From the NCBI GenBank assembly GCA_002402825.1, contig DHGP01000018.1:9150-73149 (forward strand): 64,000 bases of DNA, read 5' to 3'. The notes under the pieces are model-generated. The model was given only the letters and a program-made list of their open reading frames with translations, ran no database searches and had not been told where the DNA came from. Positions 4,604 to 53,618 of this stretch are shown one piece after another. Made by a program: the position numbers and the translations under genes. Each line of letters starts with the position of its first letter. The first letter of the stretch is position 1. This DNA comes from Firmicutes bacterium UBA4795. Its GTDB lineage: Bacteria > Bacillota > Desulfotomaculia > Desulfotomaculales > Nap2-2B.

Positions 4604-5527
4604 TCATTTTTGCCAGGCGTATGGCCATACGCCCCTACTGTGAAATTTTTCAGCCAGTGTTTCCCCCAGCCATGTGGCTTCGGTCACCTTCCCGGTGATA
4701 GTATTCCGGACAAGTTGTTTGCCATTTTCTGAGGCCACCATACCGGTAATGGTAAGTTTATCTCCTTCAACTTCTCCTAAAACGCCAATGGGATATTGGC
4801 AGCCGACCCCCAATTTACGTAAAAAGGCTCTTTCGGCTGTAACCGTTGCGTTGGAAGAAGGATGGTTTAAAGAAAAAGCTATTTGAGCAACTCGACTGTC
4901 CCCTGCCCTTCCTTCAATACCGATTGCTCCTTGGGCCGCCGCCGGTAAACAGATAGAAAAGGGGATTATTTCGGTGATATTTTTAGCCAGCCCTAGACGT
5001 TGCAATCCAGCCACCGCTATAACAATCCCATCTAATTTTTGCTCATCCATTTTTTTAAGCCGGCGGTCAATATTCCCGCGTAAAGGGACAATTCTGAAAT
5101 CAGGCCGGTAATAAAGCAGTTGCGCGGCGCGACGCAAACTGCTGGTGCCGATAACCGCGTTTTTAGGAAGAGAGCCTAAGGCTAGACCTGTCCGTGAAAC
5201 AAGAGCGTCTGCCGCGTTTCCCCGCGGGCATACCGCCAGCAAAACTAATCCTGTTGGCAACTGGGTGGGCAGGTCTTTTAAGCTATGCACGGCCAGATCA
5301 ATTTCCCCCTTTAAAAGAGCCAGCTCTAATTCCTTAGTAAACAAACCCATGCCACCCGCTTGAACTAAGGACGCCTTTGCAAATTGGTCACCGGTAGTTT
5401 TAATTTTAACCGGCAAAAAGTCAATATCGCGGTGTTTTTCTTTCAAACACTTAATTACCCATTCTGTCTGCCAAAGAGCTAATTTACTTCCTCTGGTACC
5501 AATAAGAAGCTTCTTTTGCATCCTCAC
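4604..5527 (-). CDS. hemC: Hydroxymethylbilane synthase (porphobilinogen deaminase)
   Basis: IGTRGSKLALWQ N-terminal signature and cofactor Cys context GVGCQYPIG. It overlaps the hemA stop, so the start may be the second Met at 5521. Confidence 0.92.
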   Translation of the reverse strand: MRMQKKLLIGTRGSKLALWQTEWVIKCLKEKHRDIDFLPVKIKTTGDQFAKASLVQAGGMGLFTKELELALLKGEIDLAVHSLKDLPTQLPTGLVLLAVCPRGNAADALVSRTGLALGSLPKNAVIGTSSLRRAAQLLYYRPDFRIVPLRGNIDRRLKKMDEQKLDGIVIAVAGLQRLGLAKNITEIIPFSICLPAAAQGAIGIEGRAGDSRVAQIAFSLNHPSSNATVTAERAFLRKLGVGCQYPIGVLGEVEGDKLTITGMVASENGKQLVRNTITGKVTEATWLGETLAEKFHSRGVWPYAWQK

Positions 5528-14479: not shown

Positions 14480-14955
14480 ATGACGGCAAAATCCGTTCCT
14501 TCTACCATACTTACGCAAAGATCAGGCAGCTTGCCGAGGTCATTAAAAAACCACCCTATCACCTGACCCCGGAACTTCTCTGACAGGCTTATGAAAAACT
14601 GGAAAAGTCAAAAGTAAGAGAGGCCGGCCCCCAAAAAGTGCTCACTGACATTATTTCCCTCATCCGCTTTGCCATAGGGGAAAGCGGTGTCCTTGAGCCG
14701 TTCGCCGAAACCGTAAATGAAAGATTTCACCGGTGGTTAGCAGAGCAAGAAAAGGCGGACCACAGGTTTACCCCAGAACAAGTAGACTGGCTGATCATGA
14801 TTAAAGACCACATAGCCACCAGCCTGGGCATTGAAATGGAAGATTTTGAACTGGCGCCATTTTACGAGAAAGGCGGAGCAGTAAAAGCATACCAGCTTTT
14901 CGGACCAGAATTAAATAATCTTTTAGCGGAATTAAATGAGGTGCTGGCCGCATGA
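14479..14955 (+). pseudogene. hsdR: C-terminal stub of a type I restriction R subunit (EcoEI_R_C-like domain) with an in-frame TGA
   Basis: ...KPPYHLTPELL-TGA(14581-14583)-QAYEKLEKSKVREAGPQKVLTDIISLIRFAIGE...FTPEQVDWLIMIKDHIATSLGIEMEDF...GGAVKAYQLFG...LNEVLAA. The helicase and nuclease parts are absent. Confidence 0.6.
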
Positions 14956-14965
14956 GGAAAATAAT

Positions 14966-15056
14966 GTAGGGGCGTATTGCCATACGCCCATATAAAGAAT
15001 GATAAAACATTTGATGTAGGGGCGTATTGCCATACGCCCCTACACGAATGTTTCAT
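14966..15056. repeat. REP doublet, family A (GTAGGGGCGTAT-TGCC-ATACGCCCCTAC)
   Basis: Copy 1 (14966-~14993) has a decayed 3' arm. Copy 2 (15016-15043) has a perfect 12-bp stem, and the flanking AAACATT/AATGTTT extend the stem. Confidence 0.85.
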
Positions 15057-15086: not shown

Positions 15087-16529
15087 ATGAACTTTGAAGG
15101 TCCCTACAAAATCCCCAGAAATTGGGTGTGGACGAGGCTGGGGGAAGTTTGTTTAGACCCTCAATATGGTTGGACAACAAGTGCAAAAGCGGAAGGGAAA
15201 CTTCACTTATTGAGGACTACCGATATAACTTCTGGAAATATCGATTGGTATACTGTTCCATTTTGCAAAAAAGAACCGCCTGAAAAAGAGAAATACTTGC
15301 TAAAAGATGGAGATATTGTTATTTCAAGGTCAGGTTCTGTTGGCCATAGTCATCTTATAACAAATCCTAAAGAAGCTATATTTGCATCGTATTTTATTCG
15401 GTTTAGACCTTTAATTAATGAAAAATATTTAGCAATTTTCTTAAAGAGCCCATCTTATTGGAACTCTATCTCAGAAAAAAGCCTTGGGATAGCTATGCCT
15501 AATGTTAACGCATCCAAGCTAAAACAAATTCCCCTCCCCCTCCCTCCCCTTGCCGAGCAGCACTGCATTGTGGCCAGGATTGAGGAACTTTTTACTAAGC
15601 TGGATGCCGGCGTGACGGCGTTAAAAAAAGTAAGGGCACAACTAAAACGTTATCGTCAGGCGGTTTTGAAATACGCCTTTGAAGGAAAATTAACTGAAGA
15701 ATGGCGGGAAAATCATAAGAATGAGCTGGAGCCTGCCGCCGTAATTTTGGAGCGGATAAAAGAAGAACGAAAAAAAACCGCTAAAGGAAAACTTAAAGAA
15801 CTGCCGCCACCGGATACGTCAGATTTAACTGAAATACCTGAAGGGTGGGTATGGACGAGGCTGGGGGAGATTGTTACCGATGTTGAAAAGATCAATCTTA
15901 AGATAGAACCGAATAAAGAGTTTATTTATTTGGATATTGCTTCAATTGATAACTGTCAACAAAAAATAACAAATCCTAAAAAACACATAGGTAAAGACGC
16001 TCCCTCTAGAGCAAGACAGCTTGTTAAGTCAGGGGATATTTTATTTTCTACCGTTAGAACCTATCTTAAAAATATTGCTATTATAAACGAAATCTATGAT
16101 GGGCAGATAGCATCTACAGGGTTTTGTATTATAAGACCTCATAGTTTATTAGATAATAAAATGGTATTTTATTGGGTTCAAACAGAGGAATTTGTAAATC
16201 CGTTAAATAAGATTCAGCGAGGCACAAGCTATCCTGCTGTACGGGATTTTGATGTTTTTACTCAGTTTATTCCCCTTCCTCCCCTTGCCGAACAACATAA
16301 AATTGTTGAAGAAATTGAACGCCGTTTTTCTATCGCTGACGAAGTTGAAAAAATCGTGGAACAAAGCCTCAAGCAGGCGGAAAGATTGCGCATGAGCATT
16401 TTAAAAAGAGCCTTTGAAGGGAAACTAGTTCTCCAGAATCCTAACGACGAGCCGGCCGAAAAATTGTTAGAGCGGATTAAATATGCAAGAGATCAAAAAT
16501 TTAAACCTATTAAATCTGACGAATACTGA
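15087..16529 (+). CDS. hsdS: Type I R-M specificity subunit, two target-recognition domains, apparently intact
   Basis: Duplicated architecture: IPRNWVWTRLGEV / IPEGWVWTRLGEI, plus conserved helices PLPPLAEQHCIVARIEELF / LPPLAEQHKIVEEIERRF. Confidence 0.88.
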   Translation: MNFEGPYKIPRNWVWTRLGEVCLDPQYGWTTSAKAEGKLHLLRTTDITSGNIDWYTVPFCKKEPPEKEKYLLKDGDIVISRSGSVGHSHLITNPKEAIFASYFIRFRPLINEKYLAIFLKSPSYWNSISEKSLGIAMPNVNASKLKQIPLPLPPLAEQHCIVARIEELFTKLDAGVTALKKVRAQLKRYRQAVLKYAFEGKLTEEWRENHKNELEPAAVILERIKEERKKTAKGKLKELPPPDTSDLTEIPEGWVWTRLGEIVTDVEKINLKIEPNKEFIYLDIASIDNCQQKITNPKKHIGKDAPSRARQLVKSGDILFSTVRTYLKNIAIINEIYDGQIASTGFCIIRPHSLLDNKMVFYWVQTEEFVNPLNKIQRGTSYPAVRDFDVFTQFIPLPPLAEQHKIVEEIERRFSIADEVEKIVEQSLKQAERLRMSILKRAFEGKLVLQNPNDEPAEKLLERIKYARDQKFKPIKSDEY

Positions 16530-16593: not shown

Positions 16594-17184
16594 ATGAAAT
16601 TCAATAATGAAATACACCATCGAAGGTCAATTAGATTAAAGGATTATGATTATTCACGGGCAGGTGCGTATTTCGTGACAATATGCACACACAATAGGGA
16701 ATGTCTATTTGGTGAGATTTTAAGTGGGAAGATGATAATAAATGATTTTGGAAGAATTGCCTACGATGAGTGGCTTAATACATTTCAGATACGAAGCAAT
16801 GTTGAATTAGATAAATTTGTCGTGATGCCCAACCATATCCACGGCATCATGATTATAAATTGTAGGGGCGTATGGCCATACGCCCCTACATTAGGATTAC
16901 AATATAATCGCGGGATGGGTATTTCGCAATGTCACCCTACAGCGGAATTTCGGTCACCATCCCAAACGATTGGTGCAATCGTGCGAGGTTATAAGTCAGC
17001 AGTTACTAAAAAAATAAATACATTGCGAAATACACCCAAAATGCCCTTTTGGCAACGTGCTTATTACGAACATGTGATTAGAAATGAAGATGATTTAAAC
17101 CAGGTTCGAGAATACATTATAAACAATCCCCTAAAATGGGAGCTAGATCGGGAAAATCCCAGTAATATAGAAAAAAGGAAGTAG
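16594..17184 (+). CDS. REP-associated tyrosine transposase-like protein (Y1/HUH, IS200/IS605 superfamily)
   Basis: HUH motif MPNHIHGIM and C-terminal FWQRAYYEHVIRNEDDLNQVREYIINNP. 196 aa. Wedged between hsdS and hsdM. Confidence 0.8.
   Translation: MKFNNEIHHRRSIRLKDYDYSRAGAYFVTICTHNRECLFGEILSGKMIINDFGRIAYDEWLNTFQIRSNVELDKFVVMPNHIHGIMIINCRGVWPYAPTLGLQYNRGMGISQCHPTAEFRSPSQTIGAIVRGYKSAVTKKINTLRNTPKMPFWQRAYYEHVIRNEDDLNQVREYIINNPLKWELDRENPSNIEKRK
16862..16889. repeat. Family A REP, perfect 28-nt palindrome, inside the RAYT-like CDS
   Basis: GTAGGGGCGTATGG|CCATACGCCCCTAC, translated in frame as CRGVWPYAPT. Confidence 0.9.
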
Positions 17185-17192
17185 GATATAAT

Positions 17193-18648
<1,456 letters not shown>

Positions 18649-50372: not shown

Positions 50373-50421
50373 CCTTTCCCCCTAACCCCCTCCCCTTGAA
50401 GGAGGGGGTTAGGGGGAAAGG
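50373..50421. repeat. Perfect 21-bp-stem palindrome in the argJ-argB spacer
   Basis: CCTTTCCCCCTAACCCCCTCC-CCTTGAA-GGAGGGGGTTAGGGGGAAAGG. The outer TCGAAAAA/TTTTTCGA are also inverted. Confidence 0.95.
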
Positions 50422-52564: not shown

Positions 52565-52574
52565 AGTTAAAATT

Positions 52575-52602
52575 GTAGGGGCATATAGCTATACGCCCCT
52601 AC
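52575..52602. repeat. Family A REP between argD and argF
   Basis: GTAGGGGCATAT-AGCT-ATACGCCCCTAC with one mismatch, and an AAAATTGTAG left flank. Confidence 0.9.
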
Positions 52603-52620
52603 AGAGAAAGGAAGGACAAT

Positions 52621-53590: not shown

Positions 53591-53618
53591 GTAGGGGCGT
53601 ATTGCTATACGCCCCTAC
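53591..53618. repeat. Family A REP between argF and argG
   Basis: GTAGGGGCGTAT-TGCT-ATACGCCCCTAC, perfect stem, with the same AAAATTGTAG left flank. Confidence 0.9.

Follow-up and report, generated by a model that had tools for sequence, protein, structure and literature searches.

Regarding the closest described systems, subclass 2.4 of the TnpA_REP enzymes, which according to PMC6006769 equals group 4 of the REP-associated tyrosine transposases (RAYTs; REP, repetitive extragenic palindrome) of Bertels et al. 2017 (PMC5581495), is marked by the motifs NH[IFV]H, WQ and YIxNNP and by a median length of 194 amino acids (Quentin et al. 2018, BMC Genomics 19:475, PMC6006769, Table 1). The REPs of this subclass are described as "double foot" elements, in which a 5′ GT[AG]G is matched by its complement at the 3′ end and three G-C pairs lie at the stem base; REPs placed in frame inside the gene were published in 2018 as a predominant feature of the subclass, whose distribution across phyla is patchy (PMC6006769). 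A further trait of the subclass is an eight-residue insertion at the end of helix alpha-B. The present analysis concerns one RAYT gene (positions 16594 to 17184, + strand) and the REP within its coding sequence, in a stretch of 64,000 nucleotides from Firmicutes bacterium UBA4795 (contig DHGP01000018.1), hereafter referred to as the window. The E. coli TnpA_REP of the REPtron (structure 4ER8; Messing et al. 2012, PMC3479197; Ton-Hoang et al. 2012) shares with the window protein the HUH/Y1 fold and the position of the catalytic tyrosine, and its substrate has the tetranucleotide GTAG at the hairpin foot, as does the REP of the window. It differs in that its REPs only flank the gene, have a single foot and contain bulged stems. 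The E. coli enzyme is a member of subclass 2.2 (group 2) and is 19% identical to the window protein. The transposases of the IS200/IS605 family (IS608 TnpA, ISDra2) have the same fold as well and recognize hairpins on single-stranded DNA, but these hairpins are the termini of the mobile element in which the gene resides, whereas the REP of the window is a free-standing short repeat with one copy in a coding sequence. Palindromic repeats that are likewise tolerated in frame include the Rickettsia palindromic elements and the GTAG and CGTC REPs found in open reading frames (ORFs); GTAG REPs inside the ORFs of other genes were listed by Di Nocera et al. 2013 (PMC3733652). Those repeats occur sporadically in unrelated genes, whereas in subclass 2.4 the occupied gene encodes the presumed mover enzyme, and most members are occupied at the same loop.

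The window gene, which is the only RAYT gene in the 64 kb, almost certainly belongs to subclass 2.4 (group 4). The 196-amino-acid protein contains N80-H81-I82-H83, W153-Q154 (in FWQRAYYEH) and Y174-I-I-N-N-P, and it ends approximately 17 residues past YIINNP with no C-terminal extension domain. H83 and Y174 are separated by 91 residues, including a stretch at residues 92 to 120 with low predicted local distance difference test (pLDDT) scores. The double-foot type of the REP, its in-frame location between the HUH motif and the catalytic tyrosine, and the patchy occurrence across phyla are common to the window gene and the subclass, and no difference in kind was found. The host is an uncultured member of the Peptococcaceae (Bacillota) from hydrocarbon or oil-field samples, a MurA protein of the window being 93% identical to its counterpart in Peptococcaceae bacterium SCADC1_2_3. 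The window gene lies inside a type I restriction-modification (R-M) operon, and the closest REP outside the gene is approximately 1.55 kb away; the REPtron layout, with REPs within about 1 kb of the gene, is a frequent but not universal feature and is not seen here. The in-gene REP is a further example of the published subclass feature and is not new in kind. The original prediction had stated that RAYTs are flanked, not interrupted, by REPs and had thereby implied novelty; the statement holds for the E. coli and Pseudomonas groups but not for subclass 2.4 (group 4), where REPs inside the gene had already been published in 2018 (PMC6006769).

The family assignment is supported by profiles, homologues and fold. 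The protein matched Pfam Y1_Tnp (PF01797) with 28.5 bits, above the cut-off of 23, and NCBIfam REP_Tyr_transpos (NF047646) with 75.7 bits in two stretches, the score falling below the cut-off of 80 because the REP-encoded inserted loop splits the profile match in two. A homology search returned more than 7,900 homologues, and H81, H83, W153, Y174, I175 and N178 are invariant in an alignment of 27 homologues. The HUH motif H81-I-H83 (16834 to 16842, + strand, in MPNHIHGI) aligns with H59-M-H61 of 4ER8, and the catalytic tyrosine Y174 (17113 to 17115, + strand, in YIINNP) aligns with Y115 of E. coli TnpA_REP. An AlphaFold2 model built from a 27-sequence alignment (mean pLDDT 78, with a confident core) retrieved 4ER8_A, the E. 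coli TnpA_REP with a REP hairpin, as its top Foldseek match in the PDB (E 2.9e-6, target TM 0.62), followed by the IS608 and ISDra2 transposases; the modeled protein thus adopts the same HUH/Y1 fold as its E. coli counterpart. The variable linker (residues 90 to 120; 16861 to 16953, + strand) connects the HUH strand (beta-3) to helix alpha-C. Residues 92 to 120, between the strand at 81 to 88 and the helix at 126 to 145, have pLDDT values below 50 and no secondary structure in the model, which bears on the proposal that the insert is a surface loop: it is predicted to be a disordered loop. The HUH-to-W distance is 70 residues in the window protein versus 33 in E. coli TnpA_REP (4ER8), giving about 37 extra residues, in good agreement with the approximately 35 estimated at the outset. 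Judged from its sequence, the gene looks functional.

The claim that started this work, namely that a RAYT-like gene contains a perfect in-frame REP in the linker after the HUH motif, was borne out with respect to palindrome, frame and intact ORF. REP copy 1 (16861 to 16890), delimited by an inverted-repeat search, is a perfect double-foot palindrome of 30 nt, consisting of TGTAGGGGCGTATGG followed directly by CCATACGCCCCTACA; its two 15-nt arms (16861 to 16875 and 16876 to 16890) are 100% complementary with no spacer. The 28-nt core originally reported (16862 to 16889) is correct, the perfect palindrome extending one step further to 30 nt, and displays the anatomy of a GTAG foot and a stem started by GGGC, followed by the mirror image (GTAG-GGGC...GCCC-CTAC). 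The 30 nt amount to exactly 10 codons, which are read in frame as C90-R-G-V-W-P-Y-A-P-T99 (CRGVWPYAPT) and begin six residues past the HUH histidines (H81, H83). The predicted RNA fold of copy 1 is a 13-bp stem with a GGCC loop.

A second, decayed copy lies downstream in the linker. The half-site CACCCTAC noted earlier at 16933 to 16940 is present, but its DNA by itself gives no significant match (local alignment score 20; shuffled sequences 15.2 ± 2.2, maximum 26); the half-site is taken as part of a decayed REP because a homologous copy exists in locus L162. The segment concerned, REP copy 2 (16917 to 16940, GGGTATTTCGCAATGTCACCCTAC), which encodes GISQCHPT and includes the half-site, agrees at 20 of 24 bases with the second in-gene REP of L162 (GGGTATATCGCAATACGCCCCTAC, the DNA of homologue P0005 at this place), which is clearly a REP, although its left arm is worn. 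In the peptide alignment, P0005 has GISQYAPT, P0002 DISRCHHT and the window GISQCHPT, and copy 2 is even more worn in L081, the locus of P0002 and the closest relative (76% identical). Since copy 2 can be aligned in the window, L081 and L162, the common ancestor already had two linker REPs. Each of the three loci has a perfectly palindromic copy 1 with the decayed copy 2 beside it, and the only difference in copy 1 between the window and L081 is a mirrored pair, TGGCCA versus TTGCAA. A third candidate remnant at 16662 to 16693, in the conserved GAYFVTICT region, was rejected as not significant (score 20, shuffles 15.2 ± 2.2).

The comparison was extended to 161 homologous loci (80 from reference genomes of many phyla, 80 from metagenomes, and two obtained by exact protein look-up), from which 154 RAYT ORFs were parsed. 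Nearly all of the best 120 homologues contain linker peptides such as RGVLQYAPT, VGAxCxxPL or VGATRRVAPT, or tandem versions of them, and the RGVLQYAPT and VGAxCxxPL types represent the two stop-free frames of GTAGGGGC...GCCCCTAC palindromes. Between HUH and WQ, 111 of the 154 genes (72%) have a hairpin of at least 10 pairs, as compared with 5 and 1 of the 154 for equal-length control regions in the N-terminal and C-terminal parts, respectively; with a threshold of at least 8 pairs, the linker count rises to 140, and the 14 genes without such a hairpin look intact. Occupancy by hairpins of at least 10 pairs falls from 72% in the linker to 33% in the 200 nt upstream of the gene, 23% in the 200 nt downstream, and 3 to 6% at a distance of 2 kb. 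Double-foot elements are approximately 23-fold denser in the RAYT genes (83 in 99 kb) than in their flanks (59 in 1.59 Mb). Regarding whether homologues carry their own REP in the linker, as had been suggested for checking, the 12-nt inner arm of the in-gene hairpin was found again, as an exact match, outside the gene in 34 of the 111 loci with a hairpin, versus 0.6 when arms were swapped between loci. Core identity is 59% among genes with the same hairpin interior and 48% otherwise, a difference reached in none of 300 permutations. Across the subclass, therefore, the linker is by far the commonest site of the gene's own REP type. Linker length differs among homologues, and tandem and partial REP copies are common in the linker, with up to 11 units in P0080. 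As a further observation, L081 contains an extra, nearly perfect REP at its positions 1215 to 1244 (AATAGGGGCGTATTGCAATACGCCCCTACT), read in frame as GAYCNTPLL before the RNTPK motif, the corresponding residues of the window protein being NTL. In P0013, P0015, P0021 and P0022, the protein is extended at its N- or C-terminus by REP-derived peptides.

The palindrome is conserved as DNA and not as a peptide. Within the RGxxxxAPT motif, glycine is encoded by GGC, alanine by GCC and proline by CCT 15 of 15 times each, whereas the background use of these codons is 20 to 27%; the diverged, non-palindromic codons that would be expected of a conserved protein region were thus not encountered. The four interior residues of the motif vary only as mirror-image codon pairs (VLQY, TACR, GSRT, MACH). 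When divergent pairs are compared at identical residues, the same codon is used at 7 of 8 to 10 of 10 positions inside the REP and at 30 to 57% outside it: 7/8 versus 28/92 for the window and L002, 10/10 versus 44/87 for L036 and L026, and 10/10 versus 34/79 for L055 and L111. The 28-30-nt palindrome of the window is found again in the linker of L002 (Dehalococcoidia), whose protein is 57% identical, and in that of L003 (Atribacteria; 53% identical), where it is read in another frame. Over all GT[AG]GGG occurrences, the VG frame (GTA-GGG) is used 97 times, the xRG frame (xGT-AGG) 27 times and the TAG frame never, implying that the RAYT ORFs are under purifying selection. Perfect palindromes account for 66 of 83 in-gene and 41 of 59 outside copies, with no clear difference (chi-square p ~0.17). 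Hence, the view that the in-gene copy is generally the most perfect one holds in the window but not across loci, and nothing points to an extra constraint specific to the in-gene copies.

REPs of the same family are also dispersed in the window. Allowing up to 3 mismatches, the 14-mer arm is matched 12 times, as compared with 4.3 expected, and none of 100 shuffles reached 12. Besides the in-gene copy there are at least five further copies, all of which are intergenic or at a gene end: one at 4611 to 4638 with a degraded 5′ arm and the centre TGGCCA, like the in-gene copy; two at 14965 to 14994 and 15015 to 15044, between an hsdR stub and hsdS; one intergenic copy at 52574 to 52603 with the centre TAGCTA; and another at 53591 to 53618 with the centre TTGCTA. 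Most of their differences from the in-gene copy fall within the four to six bases at the centre, and the in-gene copy is the sole fully perfect one in the window, as the original prediction had put it in calling it the most perfect. Downstream of the RAYT gene, no REP copy was found within 35 kb. The copies at 14965 to 15044 and 53591 to 53618 have the non-palindromic centres TTGCCA or TTGCTA, and TTGCCA combines the left half of the TTGCAA type (L081, L001) with the right half of the in-gene TGGCCA type. Such a centre would fit a half-site exchange between REP variants, and a point mutation would fit it equally.

Two rival explanations deny that the palindrome is a REP in a working gene. A conserved protein motif (RGVxxYAPT) that is palindromic by chance, or simply a chance palindrome, might be suspected from the recurrence of RGVLQYAPT in many homologues. 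However, the codons are invariant although four to six synonyms are possible, the interior residues change only in mirror-image codon pairs, the same DNA recurs between genes in the same loci, and the region is predicted to be disordered; the intergenic recurrence and the fixed codons refute a pure protein-motif reading, and any such explanation can be regarded as negligible. A dead remnant broken by REP insertion, or an assembly artefact at the palindrome, could be proposed because assemblers break at the palindrome, because the neighboring hsdM and hsdR are degraded, and because the NCBIfam score lies just under the cut-off. In public metagenomes (at least four runs; hydrocarbon and oil-facility samples), unitigs end exactly at 16861 and 16889, and word depth peaks about 10- to 100-fold on the palindrome, to which other organisms may contribute. 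Nevertheless, the unitigs on either side overlap by 29 nt and have similar depths within each run (14.1/19.3, 7.41/7.94 and 4.7/4.3), and the breaks and the peak combined with matching depth on both sides indicate a multi-copy repeat and not a chimeric join. A sister-strain contig (run X2, record 14) spans the palindrome, and homologues share the layout. The ORF is full length and contains all catalytic residues, including the tyrosine, and the inserted loop accounts for the low profile score; a pseudogene was rejected on these grounds, and death of the gene or a faulty assembly is very improbable.

Taken as a whole, the observations are probably explained by a member of subclass 2.4 that carries a live cognate REP in a permissive loop, where the REP is renewed. 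The E. coli TnpA_REP recognizes GTAG together with the hairpin on single strands, which it cleaves and rejoins. By analogy, the in-gene REP is most likely a live cognate substrate of the window enzyme, which would act on it as the E. coli enzyme does, and because a foot is present on both sides of the element, on either strand. REP insertions would be frequent within and close to the enzyme's own gene, and the sharp fall of REP density with distance from the gene suggests that most new copies arise near the site where the enzyme is produced. Within the protein, an insertion of ten or more residues may be tolerated only in the disordered loop. A REP inside the ORF is hard to lose, because only a precise, in-frame loss leaves a working gene; in intergenic DNA the loss need not be precise, and this asymmetry alone can raise the occupancy of the linker above that of the flanks. 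The in-gene REP would probably be renewed by further REP insertion or by exchange at the same site; such renewal would account for the tandem copies, for decayed and perfect copies lying side by side, and for one REP being read in different frames in related genes. The tandem arrays, partial duplicates, use of two frames, extra REP of L081 and decayed copy indicate a continuing turnover and not one frozen insertion. This account requires no separate role of the in-gene copy. That the REP is tolerated, hard to lose and repeatedly renewed, and has no dedicated function, is accordingly the account toward which we lean, with modest confidence. Several observations weigh against this tolerated and renewed REP. 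The closest REP outside the gene (14965 to 15044, beyond hsdS) is approximately 1.55 kb upstream and not within the 1 kb typical of a REPtron. Linker occupancy is two to three times that of the directly adjacent non-coding DNA, even though one of three frames is lethal, an excess that calls for selection to retain the REP or else for a strong bias against its loss. Furthermore, copy 1 has stayed perfect in three lineages with 63 to 76% amino-acid identity while copy 2 decayed, and its mirrored-pair difference (TGGCCA/TTGCAA) looks like constraint or self-correction. Template-switch correction of quasi-palindromes is an established mutational process, by which perfect palindromy might be kept without selection.

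The same excess of linker occupancy and the persistence of copy 1 are the main basis of two functional explanations, each of which we consider unlikely. According to one of them, the palindrome is a selected cis-regulatory hairpin: an mRNA hairpin would limit translation or mRNA life, or the enzyme would bind or cut the single-stranded DNA of its own gene, and in either version the level of a potentially harmful nuclease would be kept low. In favor of regulation, mRNA hairpins of IS200 limit its transposase. In addition, REPs near stop codons are reported to affect translation (Liang et al. 2015, as cited in PMC6006769). The stem with the GGCC loop is the dominant local RNA structure in the prediction (−55.6 kcal/mol for a 161-nt region, z −3.9), a linker hairpin of at least 8 pairs is nearly universal (140/154), the hairpin is conserved at the DNA level across phyla, and copy 1 is retained while copy 2 decays. 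On the other hand, loop position, frame, copy number (0 to >10) and stem sequence vary among close relatives, which would not be expected of a tuned regulator; the 14 of 154 genes without an 8-pair hairpin look intact, in-gene copies are no more perfect than outside copies, and a search for the window gene among RNA runs found it in none. The other explanation regards the in-gene REP as a protected master copy: with its place inside the ORF, neither recombination nor deletion could part it from the enzyme, and it would move with the gene horizontally and could seed a REP family in a naive genome. It draws on the patchy occurrence of the subclass in many phyla, on the identical 28-30-nt palindromes that accompany RAYTs only 53 to 61% identical (Peptococcaceae, Dehalococcoidia, Atribacteria, Zixibacteria), on a REP density that is highest inside the gene and falls with distance, and on the window, where the only perfect copy is in the gene and the copy at 4611 to 4638 shares its TGGCCA centre. 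Conversely, most dispersed copies of the window have other centres (TTGCCA, TAGCTA, TTGCTA), and in-gene copies across loci are not significantly more perfect (66/83 versus 41/59). More broadly, the in-gene REP could be a maintained part of the system, an inseparable substrate that seeds or re-seeds the REP family after transfer and might also damp expression of the enzyme. The occupancy of 72% versus 23 to 33%, the identical palindromes across phyla, and the retention of copy 1 beside the decaying copy 2 would allow this; we regard it as a tentative possibility with less than even prospects. Among the autoregulatory target, tolerated invasion and master copy named in the original prediction, tolerated invasion, combined with continual renewal, fits the data at least as well as the other two.

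The RAYT gene lies among genes of a type I R-M system, which is degraded. Directly upstream lies hsdS, encoding the specificity subunit (15087 to 16529, + strand; Pfam Methylase_S), which looks intact, and farther upstream a C-terminal stub of hsdR (14638 to 14955), of which only the EcoEI_R_C part is left. The hsdM gene (17193 to 18648, + strand) starts 8 nt past the RAYT stop codon and is divided into two ORFs through frameshifts, with Pfam HsdM_N and N6_Mtase matches on both pieces. It is broken by two single-base deletions; related strains in public runs have an extra A after 17978 and after 18180. In a more abundant sister strain (runs X2, X3 and X5), the segment 16481 to 17192 is changed: 511 unrelated letters replace 710 bases, which comprise the end of hsdS and the whole RAYT gene, so that closely related strains differ in what this slot contains. 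An "empty site", with hsdS joined to hsdM without the RAYT gene, was considered for this strain and rejected, as the segment is replaced by the 511 other letters and not absent. Among the loci L001 to L161, the nearest neighbors of the RAYT gene are mostly on the same strand (about 109 of 120 upstream and 84 of 114 downstream) with often very short spacers, and RAYT genes are therefore typically embedded in operons. By iterated hidden Markov model search, HsdM or HsdS is a direct neighbor of the RAYT gene in 18 of 142 loci (L006, L008, L010, L027, L028, L040, L051, L054, L055, L058, L081, L091, L092, L101, L107, L127, L137 and L142), including 10 of the 73 loci in the phylogenetically diverse genome set, with several gene orders. 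R-M families were also on top of the Pfam census of neighbors, both upstream (n = 120; Methylase_S 6, N6_Mtase 4) and downstream (n = 114; ResIII 9, N6_Mtase 6, HsdM_N 6, Methylase_S 5, HSDR_N 5). L107 and L127 are orthologous operons (HsdM 83% identical) that have a RAYT gene of a different clade at the same position, and in the related R-M operon of L101 the RAYT gene is at another position. As some R-M-linked loci share ancestry, the number of independent events is lower than 18. These counts suggest that subclass 2.4 RAYT genes are located in or beside type I R-M genes far more often than by chance. A link of RAYT genes with type I R-M systems is not mentioned by Quentin et al. (PMC6006769), in which the word "restriction" occurs 0 times, or by Bertels et al. 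(PMC5581495), and a literature search for a published link found none.

A separate repeat of the window should be distinguished from the REPs. The longest perfect inverted repeat of the window, at 50373 to 50421, consists of CCTTTCCCCCTAACCCCCTCC, a 7-nt spacer and GGAGGGGGTTAGGGGGAAAGG, with arms of 21 bp. It is unrelated to the GTAG family, is located between two + strand ORFs, and may be a terminator or belong to another repeat family.

As a single case, the in-gene REP of the window matters little in itself, being one more example of a published feature of a RAYT subclass. It is of use in annotation, in which RGVLQYAPT, VGAxxxxPL and similar REP-derived peptides should not be mistaken for protein motifs. 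The survey sharpens the question of how REP-RAYT systems persist, since the substrate is commonest inside the gene of its own enzyme and is conserved there as DNA.

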